Virus record (IMG/VR): IMGVR_UViG_3300011982_000003
Coordinates: 1-7,001 of that record
DNA: 7,001 nt
Source of the DNA: a virus
Strand: one strand, 5' to 3'
Part shown: positions 1 to 7,001 of the stretch, piece after piece
How the letters are laid out: each line of letters starts with the position of its first letter
Numbering within the stretch: position 1 is the first letter of the stretch
Program-made: the position numbers and the translations under genes
Notes under the pieces: model-generated
Seen by the model: only the letters and a program-made list of their open reading frames with translations
Databases searched by the model: none
Told to the model about the DNA's origin: nothing

Positions 1-77
1 GTTCGGAGACGCACATTTATTCCCAGCCTGCTGGAATGTTGTTGCCCGTTTTCCAGATGTTTTTGAACCCTAATGAC
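1..77. repeat. Terminal redundancy: 1..77 is identical to 6925..7001, so the window is a circular genome of 6,924 nt written with a 77-nt overlap
   Basis: Both ends match exactly when read directly (gttcggagacgcacatttattcccagcctgctggaatgttgttgcccgttttccagatgtttttgaaccctaatgac). The VP1 reading frame continues through the junction without a break. Confidence 0.9.
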
Positions 78-2102
78 CATGTATCAGTCGATACAAGTTC
101 AATTGTTCAGGCGCAAACACTTCAAGGTCGCCCGTTCTTAGGAATGAAACAGAATTTTGCGTTCTATTTTGTTCCTGCTCGTTTGATGTGTAGCTACTCG
201 AAAGCTTTCTTTAGCGGTGTAAATCCGAAAAATACGGTTACGAGTGCAAAGCTTGTTGCAGACAACCCTGCGGGTTCTGTTTTGAAAGTTCCTACCTTTA
301 AGCCTTATCAGGTGTTTGTCCGTTTTGCCGGCATTCCTGATGAAACTTCACAATTGCTTGACGTGAAGTGGATTGAGTCTAAGTTCGGTGGTTCTGCTGT
401 TAAAGACCCTCTTGCTCCTGGTAAGAATGAAGGCTTTTCAAGTGGTGGTTATTTTGGCAATCGTCGTGCTAAGTCTTCCGGTGTTGATGAGTTTACGGAG
501 GAAGAAGCAAAAGAAGCAGCTGCAAAGCCAAACCCTGTATTTAATGTTCCTGGAGATGCGTTTTTCAAGAAACCTTACGGTGATATTCTGGCGCAAAACA
601 GTAATATCGTTGATGCACTCGGCTATGATATGTTGTCTTCTTATGTTCGTTTTTGTGACATGATGAAGTACGGTGCTATGCCTTACATCGGCGAAAGTGT
701 CAATATCAAGTCTGTAACGCCGGAATTGATGAAATACGAAGCTAATTTATATTATTGGCTTGCGTATCAGAAGATATATCAAGACCACTTCCTTGATAGT
801 AACTATGAGTTTGTCAATCCTCGTTCTTATAACGTAGATGATTTGTATGACCCGACTGATTCCTCTTTCAAGTTCGATTTTGCGAGTACGAAAGAGGCTT
901 TGGACCGTGCTGTAGACATCTTTTCACCTCGTTATATCAAGTACGAGAAAGATTTGTTGTCTAACATTCACCCGTCACCGCTGTTCCTCGATGATGTTTC
1001 ATCTACGATTAAGACTTTTGTAGGTTCCGCCCCCGTTACGGGTGGCTCCTTAGATGGTCGCGGAAAAGCTTTTAACCCTTACAAAAATTCCGATACGCTT
1101 GTGTCGACGATTTGGAACGGTTCTGCGCAGTCGGAAACGATTATGTCAGCTGCTCAATTGCGCAACTTGATGGCCCTTGACAAGATGGCTCAGATTTCAA
1201 GTCGTGCACCTAAGACGTACAAAGGACAGATGTTGGCACATTACGGTGTGAATGTATCTGATGACCTAATGGAAAGTTTCTATCTCGGTGGTTTCCAAAA
1301 GGCGTTGGAAGTTTCTCCGGTTATTGCCACGTCAGATGGTAAATCGGATGATGGGTCTACCAATTTTGGACAGCAAGGAAGTTATATTGACTCTGCGCAG
1401 AGTGGACATATCAATTTCGATGCTCGTGAACATGGTGTCCTGATGTGTCTTTCTTGGTTCTCTCCCTCTTCTTTGTATGATGCTGACGGTATCGACGCTT
1501 TCAATACGAAGATGTTCCGCGAGGATTATTTTGTCCCCGAAGTCGAGGACCTTGGTATGCAGCCTATCGAGTATGCCCGTTTGTTGCCTCCTTGGATAAA
1601 GTTCGGTGCATATCGTCTGCCGGACATGACCGGATTGTCTGCAGAGTATTTGGCTACGCATAAGAAAGAGGTAGAAGATGCGTATAATGCTACGTATAAG
1701 CGTGCTTCGCTTCGTGCTCGTGGTCGCACCTTAGGTGGTGAAAGTAATGCTATCGATGTGTCAAGAGTGTATGGCTGGCAGCCTCGGTATCACGAGTTCA
1801 AAGCCGGTGCGGATTATATCCACGGAGAATTCAAGACAGGCCGCTCTATGCAGGTTCTTACTGTTCATCGTCCTACGGTGTTTAATAAGGAATTAGGCTT
1901 GAATGTTCGAAGTTCGTTTGCGTATGATAATACGTACCACGGTGTGCCTGCTTCGTTTTTGTATGTGGACCCTGCATGTACTAATGAAGTTGTGGAAGTC
2001 AATTATGACGGTACCGAGAAGACAGACCCGTTCCGCATCACTACGCACTTTGCAGTGAGTTATATTTCTGACATGTCCGTTTCCGGCATGCCTCGTGTTT
2101 AA
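1..2102 (+). CDS. Major capsid protein VP1 (F-like), 5'-partial in this linear window; the true start is at 6864
   Basis: A 688-aa ORF extended upstream through the junction. It is the largest ORF in a small circular genome that also encodes a rolling-circle Rep with a YVAKY motif, so the Microviridae capsid assignment is by context plus the conserved N-terminus. Its length matches the large VP1 of gut or Bacteroidota microviruses. Confidence 0.85.
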   Translation, partial: SETHIYSQPAGMLLPVFQMFLNPNDHVSVDTSSIVQAQTLQGRPFLGMKQNFAFYFVPARLMCSYSKAFFSGVNPKNTVTSAKLVADNPAGSVLKVPTFKPYQVFVRFAGIPDETSQLLDVKWIESKFGGSAVKDPLAPGKNEGFSSGGYFGNRRAKSSGVDEFTEEEAKEAAAKPNPVFNVPGDAFFKKPYGDILAQNSNIVDALGYDMLSSYVRFCDMMKYGAMPYIGESVNIKSVTPELMKYEANLYYWLAYQKIYQDHFLDSNYEFVNPRSYNVDDLYDPTDSSFKFDFASTKEALDRAVDIFSPRYIKYEKDLLSNIHPSPLFLDDVSSTIKTFVGSAPVTGGSLDGRGKAFNPYKNSDTLVSTIWNGSAQSETIMSAAQLRNLMALDKMAQISSRAPKTYKGQMLAHYGVNVSDDLMESFYLGGFQKALEVSPVIATSDGKSDDGSTNFGQQGSYIDSAQSGHINFDAREHGVLMCLSWFSPSSLYDADGIDAFNTKMFREDYFVPEVEDLGMQPIEYARLLPPWIKFGAYRLPDMTGLSAEYLATHKKEVEDAYNATYKRASLRARGRTLGGESNAIDVSRVYGWQPRYHEFKAGADYIHGEFKTGRSMQVLTVHRPTVFNKELGLNVRSSFAYDNTYHGVPASFLYVDPACTNEVVEVNYDGTEKTDPFRITTHFAVSYISDMSVSGMPRV

Positions 2103-2120
2103 CGTGTAAGATGTTTTATT

Positions 2121-2546
2121 ATGAAGAATTGTTATTTAAGACGCTGGCAGATTGAAAATGCTAATGCTTTTAGTCCTGCACAGGAGCAAGTTGTGACGGT
2201 AGACCAGGAGGCTACACAGTTGTTTGAAAAACTGAACCCCGTGTTGTCAAACGGTCATCGTGTGAATGTCATTACCCAGCTTGTTAACAAGAATGTGCCG
2301 CGTGAGGTTGCCGATGTTATTGCACAGTTGGTAGTTAATATACCGCACGATGACAAGAACAAGGGCTACACTGACGAGCAAATTAAGCAGATGATAGTGA
2401 GCCGTCATTATCAGAATGAAATTGAGCTTGAGGAAGTCCGTAAATCGCTTGATGCTGTGCTCGGAGATATGTTCCCAGATGAGCCTGCTTCGCAAGAGCC
2501 TGCTTTGCAGGAACCTACTCCACCGTCTGGCTCTAAACCCGAATAG
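2121..2546 (+). CDS. Hypothetical acidic 141-aa protein with a P/E/Q-rich C-terminus, possibly an internal scaffolding (VP3-like) protein
   Basis: Clean ORF on the same strand, tightly packed between the VP1 stop (2102) and the VP2 start (2549). The predicted protein is net acidic and largely helical, and is the size of gokushovirus VP3. No motif was recognised, so the functional call is only positional. Confidence 0.5.
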   Translation: MKNCYLRRWQIENANAFSPAQEQVVTVDQEATQLFEKLNPVLSNGHRVNVITQLVNKNVPREVADVIAQLVVNIPHDDKNKGYTDEQIKQMIVSRHYQNEIELEEVRKSLDAVLGDMFPDEPASQEPALQEPTPPSGSKPE

Positions 2547-2548
2547 TT

Positions 2549-3502
2549 ATGAATTATTTCAAGTTAGTAAGGGGAGAGCCTCTCTCCCCTACTTACGACA
2601 ATCGTAAGCAAATTGCGCCTTTACTTGCTGCTACTATACCTGCTGCCGTCTCGGCTGTCGGTTCTTTGGTCGGTAATTCAATGAATAATAAGGCTATACG
2701 TGAAAACAATCAGATGCAGCAGCGTCTTGTTGAAGAACAAAAAGCCTATAATGCACCGGACCAGCAAGTCGCTCGAATGCGTCAGGCAGGTTTGAACCCT
2801 TATATGATGCTTGGACAGCTTAATAGTGGTAATCAGGAAAGTGTTGCGACAACGACGCCGGAGAACAACGACACAGCCGTTAATGGTATTCTTAGTGCAG
2901 CTAATCAAGCCATTCAAGGCTTAGTAGGTCAGAGTCAAGTTCAGTTGAACAATGAGACAGCTAAGAAGACTGCGAGTGAAACCGCGCTTAATGAAATCGA
3001 TGCCCGAACGCGTGCAGCTGAAAATGATGCCCGGATTAATGCACTTGTAAAGCAGGGTAAGTTGACCGAAGAACAAGCCGAGGAAATTCGTCTAAAGAAC
3101 GACCTCACATTGTTGAATTGGGACGCTTTGTCGAAACAGTATAATATTCAAAATCAGAATGTACAAGCTGATACGAATTTGAAGACTGTAGAGAAGAATT
3201 CGAAAGATTTCCATCTACGGCAAGATAAGAAGTGGACAGATAAAGAACGTTATGCTGCTTTGCGTCTTCAAGGTACGCAATCTTTGTTGAATAATAAGCA
3301 ATCAAATGTGTTGAAACATGACGGAAATACTGCTTATTGGCGCTCTTTGGATAGTCACGTTTCCTATTTGGAGAATCAGCGCTTACATCGGTATAATCGT
3401 CAGTATTATCGTTCACCGATTAGTGACCGGAATTGGTCGCGTGTTCCTTTTGTTTCCGGTGCTGGAAGTAGTACGGGAGCTTTATTGAAACTTATCAAAT
3501 AA
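2549..3502 (+). CDS. Minor capsid / DNA pilot protein (VP2, H-like)
   Basis: 317 aa. An N-terminal hydrophobic stretch (IAPLLAATIPAAVSAVGSLVGNSM) is followed by a long Q/N/E/A-rich region predicted helical or coiled-coil. The MRQAGLNPYMMLG motif resembles the conserved AGLNP segment of microvirus VP2 proteins. The start is 2 nt after the preceding stop. Confidence 0.7.
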   Translation: MNYFKLVRGEPLSPTYDNRKQIAPLLAATIPAAVSAVGSLVGNSMNNKAIRENNQMQQRLVEEQKAYNAPDQQVARMRQAGLNPYMMLGQLNSGNQESVATTTPENNDTAVNGILSAANQAIQGLVGQSQVQLNNETAKKTASETALNEIDARTRAAENDARINALVKQGKLTEEQAEEIRLKNDLTLLNWDALSKQYNIQNQNVQADTNLKTVEKNSKDFHLRQDKKWTDKERYAALRLQGTQSLLNNKQSNVLKHDGNTAYWRSLDSHVSYLENQRLHRYNRQYYRSPISDRNWSRVPFVSGAGSSTGALLKLIK

Positions 3503-3548
3503 TTATTTATTTGGTTATGTGTAATATTAATTTTTAATTTACGTTATT

Positions 3549-3635
3549 ATGAAAAAAGAGAATGTTTGGAAGCTTGTGTTACAGATTGCTGTTTCGGCGA
3601 TTACTGCACTTGCAACCGCTTTAGGTGTTAATTAA
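3549..3635 (+). CDS. Small predicted single-transmembrane peptide, 28 aa (MKKENVWKLVLQIAVSAITALATALGVN)
   Basis: Hand-translated ORF, below the ORF-track size cutoff. It has an N-terminal KK then a 20-residue hydrophobic helix. It is on the coding strand in a region otherwise without ORFs, immediately upstream of a second similar peptide and a terminator-like hairpin. Confidence 0.4.
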   Translation: MKKENVWKLVLQIAVSAITALATALGVN

Positions 3636-3645
3636 TTTATTTGTT

Positions 3646-3762
3646 ATGTCGTATAAGAAAATATTTTTTACGATAGCAATTGTTTTTATGTTTATTTATC
3701 TGCCGGTTATCCTTGTTGGATTGATTTTTCTAATTGGTGATTGGTTAGGTATTAAAATTTAA
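3646..3762 (+). CDS. Small predicted single-transmembrane peptide, 38 aa (MSYKKIFFTIAIVFMFIYLPVILVGLIFLIGDWLGIKI), candidate holin-like or single-gene-lysis-like membrane protein
   Basis: Hand-translated ORF starting 10 nt after the previous peptide stop. It has an N-terminal basic KK, about 25 contiguous hydrophobic residues and a short polar C-terminus. A hairpin plus T-tract follows 13 nt after its stop. Confidence 0.4.
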   Translation: MSYKKIFFTIAIVFMFIYLPVILVGLIFLIGDWLGIKI

Positions 3763-3774
3763 TCTCTCTTAAAT

Positions 3775-3808
3775 GAGCGTGGCTTCGGTCACGCTTATTA
3801 TTTGCTGT
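3775..3808 (+). terminator. Rho-independent terminator-like hairpin (GAGCGTGGC-TTCG-GTCACGCTT, about 9 bp stem, TTCG tetraloop) followed by the T-rich ATTATTTGCTGTT
   Basis: Seen directly: positions 3776..3783 pair with 3788..3795, with one G-U and otherwise Watson-Crick pairs, then a T-rich run. It lies just downstream of the two small peptide ORFs. Confidence 0.45.
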
Positions 3809-4076
3809 TCGTTAGGTGAGCGTGAGCGAACATAGAATATGTTTTTTACCTTTACAGCTTGGGCCCTTGTGGCCGAACTGCGCCTAACGCTTTTTATTTG
3901 TTTTGTGTCGTTAGACAAACGCAGTACGGCGCAGCCGCCTCCTAAAGACTTTAAAAACTCTATTAATTTTGCACATCAACATTTTATCCGTATCTGTATG
4001 CGCGTGCGCGTCTCGTGCGCGCGTATGCTATACGTAGTTTGATGTGCTTAATTTGTTGTGATTAATTTGTTCCTGT

Positions 4077-4093
4077 CGGGCACGTAGTGCCCG
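4077..4093. other. Perfect GC-rich hairpin CGGGCAC-GTA-GTGCCCG (7 bp stem, 3-nt loop) in AT-rich non-coding DNA
   Basis: Exact inverted repeat read directly. There is no following T-run, so it is not a classical terminator. It is a candidate ssDNA structural signal such as a complementary-strand origin or packaging site. Confidence 0.5.
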
Positions 4094-4112
4094 CAAAACA
4101 TTTGGTAGGGGT

Positions 4113-4134
4113 TCGGGGGCTGCCAGGCCCCCGA
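4113..4134. other. Perfect GC-rich hairpin TCGGGGGC-TGCCAG-GCCCCCGA (8 bp stem, 6-nt loop)
   Basis: Exact inverted repeat read directly, 20 nt downstream of the first hairpin. It is flanked by G-runs (GGTAGGGG) upstream and the AT-rich CTATAAAAG downstream. Confidence 0.5.
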
Positions 4135-4415
4135 CTATAAAAGTTGTTGTATATAGTTTATATTATTGATATTCAGTTACTTATAATTGTTTATTTCTAT
4201 GCGTCGATAGACGGAACGTCGTTTGTATCGCTGCATATCTCTATTATTTTGTTATTATCAGTTTCCACGTCAGTGGCGCACGGCTCCCGTCCTGCGTACT
4301 CTACTCTCGACATATATAATAAAACTGACAGCTATCCAAGCACTATAAAACGCTTTAATTATTAATATTCCTTAAAAAAAAACGTTTATCATACTGCAGA
4401 TTATATTTTTCTGTG

Positions 4416-4423
4416 TATATTTG
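4416..4423 (+). promoter_or_regulatory. TATATTTG, a match to the Bacteroidota sigma-A -7 element TAnnTTTG, 31 nt upstream of the peptidase start codon
   Basis: The motif is seen directly. An upstream -33 TTTG element at canonical spacing is not clear, only a T-rich ATTTTTCTG. Assigning it as a promoter is inference from the established Bacteroides promoter consensus. Confidence 0.3.
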
Positions 4424-4453
4424 CGAATGTAAATACTAATTAACTAAAAAGTT

Positions 4454-4891
4454 ATGATGCTTGAAGATTGTAAATTGTCCCGCCATTTCACATTGTTTGA
4501 GATGTGCAATGTAAAAAAGTACGGTCGTTTTAATGAGCCTAACGCGAACGAGATTGCTAACTTAAAACAGTTGTGTTCGTTTCTCGAAATGCTTCGTGAC
4601 CGATTAGGCGGTTTATCTATAATTGTCAATTCTGGTTATCGTTCTAAGAACATTAATTTGCATGTAGGTGGTGTTCCCACCTCTGACCATGTAAAAGGTC
4701 TTGCTGCAGATATTCGCGTGATTGGTTATACCCCTATCAGGCTCGCAAAGTTTATTCGTAGCAATGATTTTCTTAACGGTTTTGTAGGTCAAGTAATCAT
4801 TTACCCTACGTTCTTGCATGTGTCGATAAATCGTTTCAAGCATAAGTCACAGTATCTAATAAAAAAAGGTAGTCGTTATGTCCCGTATTAA
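4454..4891 (+). CDS. Zinc metallopeptidase of the LAS / peptidase M15 (M15_3-like) family, a putative peptidoglycan D,D- or L-Ala-D-Glu peptidase (endolysin-like or entry cell-wall hydrolase)
   Basis: 145 aa. SGYRSKNINLHVGG is followed by SDHVKGLAADI, which matches the SxHxxGxAxD zinc-binding signature of VanY / M15 / hedgehog-fold peptidases. A downstream His in FLHVSIN serves as the third ligand. The first ATG is used (MML...), and there is no N-terminal signal peptide or TM segment. Confidence 0.75.
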   Translation: MMLEDCKLSRHFTLFEMCNVKKYGRFNEPNANEIANLKQLCSFLEMLRDRLGGLSIIVNSGYRSKNINLHVGGVPTSDHVKGLAADIRVIGYTPIRLAKFIRSNDFLNGFVGQVIIYPTFLHVSINRFKHKSQYLIKKGSRYVPY

Positions 4892-5063
4892 GTTGCAATA
4901 TCCTATAATTGAGCAATGCGAATTATCGATATACTTTGAGAGACGTATATCAAAGCATGGTGATAAGGATATCATTTTGTGGCGTGTTGAGCAATCAGAT
5001 GGTACATATCACTGTTTTTCAAGTTTTGATGCTGTAATCGATTTTGTAAAGTTGAATTTCTGA
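4878..5063 (+). CDS. Hypothetical 61-aa protein
   Basis: ORF overlapping the peptidase 3' end by 14 nt. Its stop overlaps the rep start in a TGATG arrangement, suggesting translational coupling. No motif was recognised. It is near charge-neutral, so it is not an obvious J/VP8-type basic DNA-binding protein. Confidence 0.45.
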   Translation: MSRIKLQYPIIEQCELSIYFERRISKHGDKDIILWRVEQSDGTYHCFSSFDAVIDFVKLNF

Positions 5064-6841
5064 TGCACCCTTTAGTTAGTCTCGTCAAAGAGAAAGAAGT
5101 GTTGTTACCTTGTGAACACCCGGTGTTGACAGAAAATAACGGTCGTGTTTATGCCCATGCCTGCGGTAAGTGTCGCATGTGTATGGAAAAGAAAGCACAG
5201 ATTTGGCGTATTAGATTAAAACAAGAGTGTGAAGATAACCGTTTTTGTATATTTTTTACCCTTACTTATGATAATATAAATGTTCCCTTTTTTCAACCTG
5301 CTAAAGACGCTGCTTGCTATGTACTCGATGGTGCGCAAGGATATCAGTTTAAAGGAGATGATTTCGTTTCTTATTCAAAAAGATTGTCCGTTCCTTATAA
5401 GGATTGTGGCGATGTGCTACCTATTGTTACCAATTTTGATGTTTGTAACTCTTTTGCTGTTGTTTCACGTACAGATGTTCAAAAGTTTTTGAAACGCTTC
5501 CGGTGGCATTTGCAACACCTTTTGACTAAACATTACAAGTTGAAATTTTATGACCAAATTTTCCATTGGACGCGACAGTTAGGTTATGATGGAACTGTAA
5601 AGTTTGAGGATTGGTTGTCTGATTTAGATGATGATACCTATACGATATATAATGAAGTTTATCAATATTATAAAAATAAATATGAAAAAGAAAAAGAACA
5701 AGCAAAGCAAGTCACGCGTTACTTCATTTGTAGCGAGTACACTCCGAGCACTTTCCGACCCCACTATCATGGTCTCTTTTGGTTTGAGAATGAAAAGGCG
5801 TACCAATTCGCCTTTAGGTGTATACGTAAGGCTTGGACGTTGTGCCATCAAAGGAATATCGACGTCCAATCTGTCACCGGCAACGCTTACGCCTATGTTG
5901 CGAAATATGTTACTGGCAATCTTAATTTGCCAAAGGTTCTACAAGCTAAATCTACCCGCACGTTCTGTCTGGCTTCTAAAGGTCCAGCTGTCGGGTATAA
6001 GTCGTTTAGTTCAGAAAGAGTATGCGAAATGTACAACCAACGAAATATATTCAGAAGTATTGACACAGTCACAAAGCAAGGAAAACAAGTTAATGTTTAC
6101 GTTGTTCCCCCGAGTGTTGTATCTCGATATTTCCCAAAGTGTTATCAGTATAGCCAGATATCTGATACACATAAATTTCGTGTATATACGCGATTTATCA
6201 AAATACAAAGATATGGTGACGTCGAAAAAATAGATATTCCTGCTTCTCTCGCGTGTTTACAATGGTATAAAGAGAATACGCATTTATATCCTCGGAGAAC
6301 TGTTGATGAATTAGGTGATAGTATGAACGCTGAGACTCCTTGGTTTCATTCTGCAGACATCAATGCCGCTCGTGCATGTTTAAGATGGTGTGTTAAGTAT
6401 GATTGTCACCCAAACCATTATATTGCGATGTTGGATTGGTTTCATAACGAGTATGCACAATATAATTTGTATCAACAATATCGGTATATGGAGCGTTTAC
6501 AGCGTGTTGTGCGTTACCGTGCTGATGAATACTATTCAAAGGATATAGATATAAGGTTAGATGATGTCAAGATATGTATAGATTTTACGTTCTTGGCGTG
6601 TTTACCGTTCTATTTGAAAGATGCTATTGATAGGCCTGATTTGTGTGCTATTGCAGAGAGTTACGGCATACATATATCTAACTTCTATTATCAAGGTTTG
6701 TTGTCACGTGATAAGGTTAATAGATACTATGAATATAACCAGAAGCATTTTGCCGAGTATCGACAAAAAGTTTATGATAGGTTGATATTGGCCGATAAAA
6801 CTAAGAAAGCTAATTCCTCTGTTTTGGAAGAAGTATATTAA
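5063..6841 (+). CDS. Rolling-circle replication initiation protein (VP4 / phiX174 gene A-like)
   Basis: 592 aa with the three RCR motifs in order: motif I FFTLTYD (about 5253..5273), motif II HYHGLFW (HYH at 5762..5770), and motif III YAYVAKYVTGN with paired catalytic tyrosines YVAKY (5894..5908), as in the phiX174 A protein. The N-terminus carries a Cys/His cluster, C-x-H...H-x-C-x2-C-x2-C. Confidence 0.9.
   Translation: MHPLVSLVKEKEVLLPCEHPVLTENNGRVYAHACGKCRMCMEKKAQIWRIRLKQECEDNRFCIFFTLTYDNINVPFFQPAKDAACYVLDGAQGYQFKGDDFVSYSKRLSVPYKDCGDVLPIVTNFDVCNSFAVVSRTDVQKFLKRFRWHLQHLLTKHYKLKFYDQIFHWTRQLGYDGTVKFEDWLSDLDDDTYTIYNEVYQYYKNKYEKEKEQAKQVTRYFICSEYTPSTFRPHYHGLFWFENEKAYQFAFRCIRKAWTLCHQRNIDVQSVTGNAYAYVAKYVTGNLNLPKVLQAKSTRTFCLASKGPAVGYKSFSSERVCEMYNQRNIFRSIDTVTKQGKQVNVYVVPPSVVSRYFPKCYQYSQISDTHKFRVYTRFIKIQRYGDVEKIDIPASLACLQWYKENTHLYPRRTVDELGDSMNAETPWFHSADINAARACLRWCVKYDCHPNHYIAMLDWFHNEYAQYNLYQQYRYMERLQRVVRYRADEYYSKDIDIRLDDVKICIDFTFLACLPFYLKDAIDRPDLCAIAESYGIHISNFYYQGLLSRDKVNRYYEYNQKHFAEYRQKVYDRLILADKTKKANSSVLEEVY
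5628..6233 (+). CDS. Candidate overprinted ORF (201 codons) in the +1 frame inside rep, with a highly basic N-terminus (MKKKKNKQSKSR...). Speculative.
   Basis: It is open for 201 codons in an AT-rich genome where alternate frames normally close quickly. Microviruses are known to overprint genes inside gene A (phiX B, K, A*). There is no independent evidence, and the basic N-terminus partly comes from an A-rich tract. Confidence 0.15.
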   Translation: MMIPIRYIMKFINIIKINMKKKKNKQSKSRVTSFVASTLRALSDPTIMVSFGLRMKRRTNSPLGVYVRLGRCAIKGISTSNLSPATLTPMLRNMLLAILICQRFYKLNLPARSVWLLKVQLSGISRLVQKEYAKCTTNEIYSEVLTQSQSKENKLMFTLFPRVLYLDISQSVISIARYLIHINFVYIRDLSKYKDMVTSKK

Positions 6842-6863
6842 TGTTTAACTAAATTATTGTATT

Positions 6864-7001
6864 ATGTCTAAAGTTCCAAAAATTGACGTTTCCCCTGCGA
6901 AACGACCTCGGAATGGTTTTGACCGTTCGGAGACGCACATTTATTCCCAGCCTGCTGGAATGTTGTTGCCCGTTTTCCAGATGTTTTTGAACCCTAATGA
7001 C
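6864..7001 (+). CDS. Major capsid protein VP1 (F-like), N-terminal part. The gene wraps across the circular junction and continues at 1..2102, giving about 720 aa in total.
   Basis: ATG at 6864 is the first start after an in-frame TAA at 6846..6848. Translation gives MSKVPKIDVSPAKRPRNGFDRSETHIYSQPAGMLLPVFQ..., a typical microvirus VP1 N-terminus (K/R-rich, RNxFD motif). It is in frame with the ORF 36..2102 (position 36 equals 6960, and 6960-6864=96). Confidence 0.85.
   Translation, partial: MSKVPKIDVSPAKRPRNGFDRSETHIYSQPAGMLLPVFQMFLNPND

Follow-up and report, generated by a model that had tools for sequence, protein, structure and literature searches.

Two small membrane-peptide genes behind the pilot gene

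The window analyzed here is a stretch of 7,001 nucleotides (nt) from IMG/VR virus record IMGVR_UViG_3300011982_000003 (positions 1 to 7,001), and our subject is a pair of very short open reading frames (ORFs), sORF1 and sORF2, that lie downstream of the DNA pilot protein gene, in the gap that separates it from a gene for an M15 peptidase. A sequence-only reading of the window had described ORFs of 28 and 38 amino acids (aa) running head-to-tail on the coding strand, each with a Lys pair and a hydrophobic helix, in a region otherwise free of ORFs and directly followed by a hairpin and T-tract, and had noted a cytoplasmic M15 peptidase in the same genome. The ORFs, Lys pairs, hydrophobic helices, hairpin, and T-tract were all confirmed in place, and the features concerned are the following:

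3549-3635, + strand: sORF1, 28 aa, MKKENVWKLVLQIAVSAITALATALGVN, cysteine-less viral member of the DUF6486 or "smalltalk protein" family
3646-3762, + strand: sORF2, 38 aa, MSYKKIFFTIAIVFMFIYLPVILVGLIFLIGDWLGIKI, member of a clade-restricted, very hydrophobic family with a Lys-Lys N-terminus and a mid-helix Pro20
3772-3809, + strand: intrinsic-terminator-like hairpin AATGAGCGTGGC-TTCG-GTCACGCTTATT and T-rich tail; 12 pairs, stem-loop at 3772-3799, -17.3 kcal/mol
3503-4453: gap of 951 nt with no large conserved ORF
4454-4891, + strand: Peptidase_M15_3, 145 aa, putative endolysin (PF08291, E 1.6e-18, 67.2 bits)

Hydropathy is the single basis on which the two peptides are called transmembrane (TM), the best 19-residue Kyte–Doolittle mean being 2.09 for sORF1 and 3.02 for sORF2. 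Both carry the Lys pair at the N-terminus; sORF1 stops two residues past its helix (...LGVN), and sORF2 ends in ...GDWLGIKI. We computed how readily such a pair arises by chance from dinucleotide shuffles of the gap, counting TM-like ORFs that start with ATG and have at least 28 aa. At least one was found in 56% of the shuffled gaps; 16% had two or more, and 1.6% had two placed head-to-tail within 30 nt. As chance is a weak filter in the T-rich DNA of a single genome, the comparison with relatives decides.

Relatives were gathered via GenBank, via the peptidase, via the capsid protein (and hence not selected for the sORFs), and via degenerate DNA patterns, giving a comparison set of 17 complete or near-complete clade genomes, with capsid identity down to 38%, and 10 metagenome contigs. 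The order of elements is common to all 17 genomes and all 10 contigs: the pilot gene, a peptide of 27-29 aa, a second small hydrophobic peptide, a G+C-rich hairpin, and a T-tract. The second peptide begins 5-13 nt after the first, and two genomes, L003 and L150 in our numbering, have two or three further peptides. In L150 (5855-6335), the first peptide is followed by three small hydrophobic ORFs of 27, 48, and 42 aa; two of the three are paralogous (M.ID..KWSP.TVMV.IGFVFLL...), and a terminator-like hairpin stands between them.

The substitution patterns show the signal expected from protein-coding genes, with changes in both sORFs gathering at third codon positions. The ratio of nonsynonymous to synonymous rates (dN/dS) of sORF1 is 0.13 in one subgroup and 0.00 in the other (29 synonymous and 0 nonsynonymous differences), and one Ser is retained via TCG ↔ AGC; with 0.10-0.14 for the M15 gene, the constraint on sORF1 is at least equal. 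The ratio of sORF2 is 0.23-0.65, similar to that of the pilot protein, and its length of 38 aa in eight genomes, its N-terminal MSYKK, and its mid-helix proline are retained. Within the aligned subfamilies, frame-breaking indels are absent from the sORFs, and the flanking noncoding DNA is indel-rich. Finally, the start context [AG]TT-ATG is found at seven of eight genes, both sORFs included, and at only 7.3% of all ATGs of the strand. The sequence-only reading had looked to conservation at this locus and to dN/dS for confirmation, and both are seen, with the frames intact throughout the comparison set. Since position, length, frame, selection, and start context are all conserved, we regard sORF1 and sORF2 as real membrane-peptide genes with near certainty. 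That they are chance hydrophobic ORFs in T-rich noncoding DNA, kept as a DNA or RNA element, has in its favor the ease with which such DNA yields TM-like ORFs in our shuffles, but this explanation is effectively refuted by the third-position changes and the synonymous excess, by the conserved Ser codon exchange, by indels that spare the sORF frames and abound in the flanks, and by the match of sORF1 to two curated protein families.

Relatives of both peptides have been deposited in public databases, as "smalltalk protein [Segatella salivae]" (of the viral type) and "hypothetical protein [Microviridae sp.]"; an exact look-up of the sORF2 of the window found it not on record. A lambda-like dual start of sORF2, from an in-frame GTG at 3625, was considered and rejected, as the spacing between sORF1 and sORF2 varies from 10 to 13 nt among relatives and the frame is not conserved.

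Families of the two peptides

sORF1 matches Pfam family PF20096 (DUF6486; E 1.1e-9, 38.1 bits, cutoff 22.7) and NCBIfam family NF033879, "smalltalk protein" (E 1.1e-8, 34.7 bits, cutoff 24.7). Judged by these profile matches, sORF1 is not an orphan but belongs to DUF6486/smalltalk. The family has no function assigned in the libraries and literature that we searched; in the latter, "DUF6486" is absent and "smalltalk protein" occurs in a single paper, as a gene-table entry.

A pattern scan over 185,579 bacterial genomes returned at least 120 bacterial smalltalk loci. Among the matches listed, almost all are from Prevotella, Segatella, and other Bacteroidales, often with multiple copies per genome, and an identical peptide may occupy several sites of one genome (loci L014-L133 and L222-L231). 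The bacterial peptides listed follow the pattern MKxxTWKTILQIAISILTAIATTLGV[TS]SC plus 0-3 residues. For a column-wise comparison, we used 76 unique bacterial peptides from the listed matches and 13 viral ones. While 96% of the bacterial peptides have a Cys exactly four residues past the conserved LG, the 13 viral peptides contain no Cys at all; the viral copies end 2-5 residues after LG, nearly all at 2. The Cys is typical of the bacterial copies, but the family profile does not demand it. The V-T-S-C context of the bacterial residue fits the lipoprotein lipobox consensus. Bacterial smalltalk as a whole resembles a lipoprotein signal peptide, with a Lys-rich N-terminus, a hydrophobic core, V-T-S-C, and 0-3 residues after the Cys; it has almost no mature protein, yet its helix carries most of the conserved residues.

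sORF1 shares with smalltalk the length class of about 30 aa, the single hydrophobic helix, and the motif W-K...Q...S...T-A-x-A-T-x-L-G. The best-conserved positions are W-K, a polar/small stripe on one helix face (Q12/S16/T19/T23 in sORF1), A-x-A, and L-G. Such conservation would not be expected of a generic signal peptide, and a specific helix–helix interaction is therefore likely. The best explanation of these data is that sORF1 is a virus-adapted copy of bacterial smalltalk that would have lost the C-terminal, lipobox-like Cys.

The genomic context differs between the two types, the viral gene following the pilot gene whereas the bacterial gene usually follows a gene for an HU-HIG DNA-binding protein (PF18291). 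Among the matches listed, 43 copies have an upstream flank of 2.6 kb or more, and in 36 of these an HU-HIG gene precedes smalltalk by about 96 nt; in Pfam-annotated Segatella copri chromosomes the two genes are paired at 7 of 10 sites, with unrelated flanks that often contain transposases. No protein of the window gave an HU-HIG match in the Pfam scan. The paper that defined the HU-HIG family proposed a role in conflicts with invasive DNA and described its genes as almost entirely without conserved operonic linkages (PMC5499826); as no conserved linkage is reported there, the HU-HIG–smalltalk cassette appears undescribed.

Some of the bacterial copies have a peptidase nearby, a Peptidase_M15_3 gene being present within 3 kb of 13 of the 121 copies among the matches listed. 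Three loci (L016, L064, and L106) share the order Toprim/DnaB primase-helicase, 143-aa protein, M15_3, smalltalk (22-74 nt after M15_3), and HU-HIG, an arrangement that suggests a small mobile or phage-derived module. The M15_3 proteins found beside bacterial smalltalk are 33-41% identical to the peptidase of the window and likewise lack a signal sequence. The idea that smalltalk is part of tailed-phage lysis cassettes was rejected, as three large viral contigs have the bacterial Cys type beside integrase or HU-HIG genes instead.

Dulem microviruses 246-251 from lemur gut also encode a DUF6486 peptide (E 3.1e-8) that lacks the cysteine and has a TTCG hairpin and T-tract after it, and Dulem is thus a second, divergent smalltalk-bearing microvirus lineage. 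In Dulem virus 247 (L013, PP511389), the peptide has 31 aa, lies at 6125-6220 after a 73-aa ORF, and precedes the hairpin GAAGGGC-TTCG-TGCCCTTC and T-tract; Dulem viruses 246 and 249-251 have it as well. The annotated capsid start of PP511389 sits two bases upstream of the hairpin, so that the gene runs through it, and is probably placed too far upstream.

sORF2 has no match in Pfam, NCBIfam, or PADLOC, and its lone PHROG match is insignificant (E 0.055); a tblastn search of 50,697 GenBank phage records gave no match either. Across the clade, the peptides in the second slot are of several types, MS.KK...IPLL..., M[FL]DFNLKK..., MKIDFKKW..., and MTWQKVALIA..., of which the first three were aligned and the MTWQK type was left out. 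In this alignment, K5 is invariant and K4 and P20 are nearly so, the proline being present in 13 of 14 sequences about 15 residues past the Lys pair. A profile search of 5.8 billion proteins returned 12 clusters only. Their sources are Microviridae records and bacterial contigs as long as 211 kb, the latter probable prophages, and no cluster bears a holin name. The best explanation is that sORF2 evolves fast and is a partner specific to the clade, its helix predicted to be kinked at the proline.

The sequence-only reading had compared the peptides with the single-helix lysis protein E of phiX174, which has a proline at position 21. No homology to it was detected: neither peptide matches phiX174 E, and for sORF2 the hhalign probability was 0.2%, BLASTP produced no alignment, and no Pfam match was found. 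The mid-helix proline of sORF2 falls at about the position of Pro21, a resemblance only.

The peptidase, a predicted promoter, and a terminator-like hairpin

The peptidase of the window matches phrog_894 "endolysin" (E 4.6e-27) and the muramoyl-pentapeptide carboxypeptidase structure 1lbu (E 2e-5), and the Zn-binding residues H79, D86, and H122 (His/Asp/His) are invariant in seven divergent microviral enzymes. Its N-terminus, MMLEDCKLSRHFTLFEMCNVKKYG, has no hydrophobic run, and by sequence inspection it lacks a signal or signal-arrest-release sequence; the same is seen in the seven aligned relatives. An endolysin without a signal requires a lesion in the cytoplasmic membrane to reach its substrate, and a membrane partner is therefore expected. 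The M15 gene and the peptides co-occur in 17 of 17 clade genomes and also in L234, L237, and L239, the contigs that extend far enough. L141, an apparent case of M15 without the peptides, was rejected as a counter-example: it has no terminal repeat, the region homologous to L146 2997-3923 is missing, and the contig is probably incomplete.

A hairpin and T-tract follow the small-peptide genes in 17 of 17 genomes, as at 3772-3809 in the window. Close relatives show compensatory substitutions in the stem, and distant ones have unrelated stems in which the pairing is kept (GCGTGGC/GTCACGC, GTAGGGA/TCCCTAC, CAGGGATTT/AAATCTCTG, and GAAGGGC/GCCCTTC), always with T-rich sequence after them. The features that bear on the other end of the transcript are these:

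3503-3548, + strand: AT-rich spacer between the pilot gene and sORF1, 13% G+C, with a TATAATATT-like box and no TAnnTTTG (from composition and comparison)
4386-4406, + strand: dif-like attachment core TTATCATA-CTGCAG-ATTATAT, from circular L002 against prophage L216, whose ends overlap by about 21 nt
4416-4423, + strand: TATATTTG, an exact TAnnTTTG match, 38 nt before the M15 start codon

TAnnTTTG is reportedly the -7 promoter consensus of Bacteroidetes, as attributed to Bayley and coworkers in 2000. The coding strand has two such sites genome-wide (4416-4423 and 3964-3971), both in the gap, with about 4.5 expected from composition. Of 10 relatives, 7 have the motif at positions -29 to -39 relative to the M15 start, and it was not found before sORF1 in the upstream sequences of 11 genomes, where a TATAATATT-like box is conserved (three genomes compared). 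A scan for sigma-70-type promoters gave counts not above those of shuffles and none placed to drive sORF1; the host phylum uses other promoters.

In several samples, relatives occur as prophages (L216-L221), all at the same chromosomal site, which is flanked by NlpC/P60 and SusC/SusD-like genes. Their gene order is M15_3, a protein of 61-64 aa, the replication initiator (Rep), capsid, a 146-aa protein, pilot, DUF6486, and a 40-aa second peptide. The attachment core is a block conserved among the aligned genomes that lies downstream of the terminator and upstream of the promoter box of M15; integrated relatives open at this core, and the M15 and peptide genes, both acquired, flank it. The sequence-only reading had taken the peptides and hairpin for a small self-contained transcription unit. 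This has to be given up: the sole conserved promoter motif precedes M15, and the prophage order is M15-first and peptides-last, so the peptides are better placed as the last genes of a long unit. The simplest model would be one genome-long transcription unit, with its start ahead of M15 and its end at the hairpin that follows sORF2. As the viral-type peptide is deposited under Segatella salivae, the evidence points to a host group of the Segatella/Prevotella type, and the sORFs and their M15 flank belong to a virus of Prevotella-group bacteria.

The window is a circular microvirus genome of 6924 nt read beyond its own start, with bases 1-77 repeated at 6925-7001, and all of its genes are on the + strand. 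The closest GenBank records, the human-saliva microviruses D_HF5_96 and D_HF4_111, have the same gene order. The remaining features are:

6864 across the origin to 2102, + strand: major capsid protein
2121-2546, + strand: 141-aa protein
2549-3502, + strand: DNA pilot protein
4258-4331, + strand: highly conserved structured noncoding element, TCAGTTTCC...hairpins...CTCGACATATATAATAAAACTGACAG, in 11 of 11 aligned genomes
4878-5063, + strand: 61-aa protein
5063-6841, + strand: Rep

The element at 4258-4331 may be a replication origin, a packaging signal, or an accessory site for recombination. A search of the whole window, this element included, against Rfam at E up to 1 found no RNA family, so the hairpins of the gap resemble no described RNA. 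A window-specific insert of about 400 nt (c. 3840-4250), absent from the aligned relatives, is rich in G+C hairpins (e.g., GTATGCGCGTGCGCGTCTCGTGCGCGCGTATGC; GGGGTTCGGGGGCTGCCAGGCCCCCGAC). Two gap ORFs, of 67 aa (3839-4042) and 73 aa (4144-4365), were set aside as nonconserved, lying in this insert and not being common to the relatives. In relatives, the interval between terminator and M15 is a hot spot of accessory ORFs (L001 3955-4239; L004 3882-4127 and 4534-4701; L003 4443-4589; L005), among them an acidic 94-aa protein and a protein of 81 aa after the terminator and, past the promoter box but ahead of M15, a protein of 48-58 aa (...VYQQVYVN...); the window has none of these. A 56-aa hydrophobic ORF (MTEILLIGALWIVTFPIW...; 3318-3488, + strand) lies in another frame inside the 3' end of the pilot gene and recalls embedded lysis genes. 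Hydrophobic ORFs are found at the pilot 3' end in relatives also, but their length (30-132 aa) and sequence vary, and the ORF probably arises as a side effect of alternative frames in T-rich DNA.

A proposed membrane module for the peptidase and its alternatives

We favor a reading in which sORF1 and sORF2 form a miniature holin- or pinholin-like membrane module for the M15 peptidase, and we give it a probability of roughly 0.4. Both would be single-pass peptides of the inner (cytoplasmic) membrane, the N-terminal Lys pair facing the cytoplasm, and would build up there late in infection or upon prophage induction. The polar stripe of sORF1 may mediate oligomerization, into either a lining or a zipping oligomer, and the membrane would be permeabilized by the leak or lesion that results. 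Through it, the cytoplasmic and signal-less M15_3, which would depend on the peptides for its passage, could gain access to peptidoglycan, cut its peptide links, and bring about lysis of the cell. We prefer this module because no other small TM peptides are conserved throughout the clade, because sORF1 and sORF2 accompany M15 in all 17 clade genomes, and because genes of the M15_3 and smalltalk families are neighbors in some hosts. Their position at the end of a unit that carries the structural genes gives further support, as does the precedent of the microvirus Ebor, which pairs a verified wall hydrolase with a 45-aa membrane protein (PMC11980548), and the adjacency of M15_3 and smalltalk in bacteria, together with the location of both viral genes on either side of the attachment core, would fit a joint capture from a host locus.

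Several results weigh against such a role. Searches of Pfam, PHROGs, and NCBIfam at E up to 1 gave no match of the peptides to a holin family; their lengths of 28 and 38 aa are far below those of typical holins; both peptides lack the charged, hydrophilic C-terminal tail typical of holins; and about 700 nt and a terminator lie between them and M15. Smalltalk was found in none of 64 nonmicroviral contigs with a related M15_3, its dominant bacterial neighbor in the counts given above is HU-HIG and not a wall hydrolase, and on large viral contigs it adjoins integrase or HU-HIG, outside lysis cassettes. The most important point is that Dulem 246-251, which have cysteine-less smalltalk, have no M15 in any frame, so roles other than that of a peptidase partner are possible. 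The holin-like partnership put forward in the sequence-only reading thus stands in part: the single-helix peptides are conserved and invariably found with M15 in the clade, but the family match and charged tail of a holin are lacking, and the Dulem viruses have no peptidase for a partner. We consider a lysis role the best candidate, as a proposal drawn from comparative sequence analysis.

Some of the same data allow for a different and on the whole unlikely explanation, according to which the viral cysteine-less smalltalk mimics or antagonizes the HU-HIG-linked smalltalk of the host, by co-assembly, by blocking it, or by triggering it prematurely, or provides superinfection exclusion in lysogens. 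The host system could be, for instance, a conflict or abortive-infection module, with sORF2 as a variable accessory. This would account for the true homology of sORF1 to a multi-copy host family, for the dichotomy in the Cys (96% of the 76 unique bacterial peptides among the matches listed and 0 of 13 viral ones), and for the pairing of the host gene with HU-HIG, a proposed conflict family (PMC5499826). The viruses are also temperate, with prophages integrated at a fixed chromosomal site and a peptide of the viral type entered in the databases as "smalltalk protein [Segatella salivae]"; the Dulem lineage retains smalltalk without the peptidase; and the second slot swaps among unrelated-looking peptide types, as in the turnover of an arms race. 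On the other hand, a PADLOC scan of HU-HIG, smalltalk, sORF1, sORF2, the bacterial M15_3, and neighbors found no known or candidate defense system, no promoter motif points to separate expression in the lysogen, and the route of the signal-less M15 to the wall is left unexplained. A rather doubtful extension would have the virus capture host smalltalk and remove the lipobox Cys, the uncleavable helix then hijacking an unrecognized membrane switch of Bacteroidales. Such a hijack, held with the same reserve, could amount to host-type autolysis on the schedule of the virus or to a disarmed HU-HIG/smalltalk conflict system.

We find it improbable that one or both peptides are stand-alone effectors that kill or lyse the cell without the phage peptidase, M15 being a mere accelerator. 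They would do so by loss of membrane potential, as type I toxins do, or by a block of envelope synthesis, in the manner of single-gene lysis; as sORF1 resembles an uncleavable lipoprotein signal peptide, the step blocked could be lipoprotein processing. The Dulem microviruses, with smalltalk and without a wall hydrolase, agree with this, as do the near-invariant proline of sORF2 at about the place of that in phiX174 E, peptide sizes like those of membrane toxin peptides, and the character of bacterial smalltalk, lipoprotein-signal-like with almost no mature part. Neither the lack of any sequence relation to phiX174 E nor the strong purifying selection on M15 in every clade genome, which argues that the enzyme is needed, is in line with it, and an unregulated toxic peptide would fit stable prophages poorly, although repression in lysogens is possible. 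Very unlikely in our view is another membrane role, such as anchoring replication or assembly or aiding the adjacent pilot protein in DNA delivery. The predicted membrane peptides do always lie directly downstream of the pilot gene in the clade, but the smalltalk of Dulem follows Rep and a 73-aa ORF, not a pilot gene, and the bacterial homologs are without such a context. We know of no precedent for a role of this kind.

The question that the locus addresses is how microviruses outside the phiX174 group lyse their hosts. It provides two concrete, conserved candidate genes for the passage of the peptidase across the membrane, a step for which no route was proposed with the M15 report of 2012. 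With prophage relatives in Segatella/Prevotella-type genomes, lysogens may be amenable to experiments, and the whole module is of a size that can be synthesized. The virus is now tied to smalltalk/DUF6486, which has several copies per genome in the dominant human gut and oral Prevotella/Segatella, and the presence or absence of the Cys between bacterial and viral copies is a ready-made structure–function contrast. Should the hijack of a host switch be true, it would mean a new microvirus strategy of lysis or antidefense and would expose the function of a very abundant family of gut and oral microproteins.

Among known systems, the holin/pinholin–endolysin cassettes of tailed phages (lambda S105/R, phage 21 S68/R21) similarly combine small membrane proteins with a signal-less muralytic enzyme, may have more than one small TM protein in tandem, and show rapid turnover of that component. 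In contrast to them, the peptides here have 27-48 aa, a single helix, and no charged C-terminal domain, match no holin family, are not adjacent to the enzyme, and are carried by a 6.9-kb single-stranded DNA microvirus. The amurin phiX174 E is, like sORF2, microvirus-encoded, with one N-terminal TM helix and a mid-helix proline, but it has 91 aa, its C-terminal part is basic, and its gene lies within gene D, whereas the sORFs are free-standing and a peptidase is also encoded. Roux et al. (2012) reported M15 peptidases in microviruses of the Alpavirinae and Gokushovirinae and proposed that they are endolysins acquired horizontally from Bacteroidetes (PMC3394797). The enzyme family, the endolysin proposal, and the kind of virus are the same as here; that report names no membrane partner and does not include the small ORFs described above. 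A further system is the microvirus Ebor (Tainavirinae), for which a verified peptidoglycan hydrolase, Gp7, and a 45-aa membrane protein of unassigned function, Gp1, were reported in 2025 (PMC11980548). Like the virus of the window, Ebor combines an enzyme that degrades the wall with a very small predicted membrane protein, and it differs in its subfamily, its Rhodobacter host, and the best matches of its enzyme. The expectation of the sequence-only reading that a holin–endolysin-like arrangement in a microvirus would be new is to this extent preceded, by the M15 report of 2012 (PMC3394797) and by Ebor (PMC11980548); what appears new is the candidate membrane partner, as the literature that we searched contains no proposal of one for a microviral peptidase and no link between microviruses and smalltalk. 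The microviral M15 and the pairing of a hydrolase with a small membrane protein are thus known already, and for the sORF pair, as a candidate membrane partner, the case is concrete.

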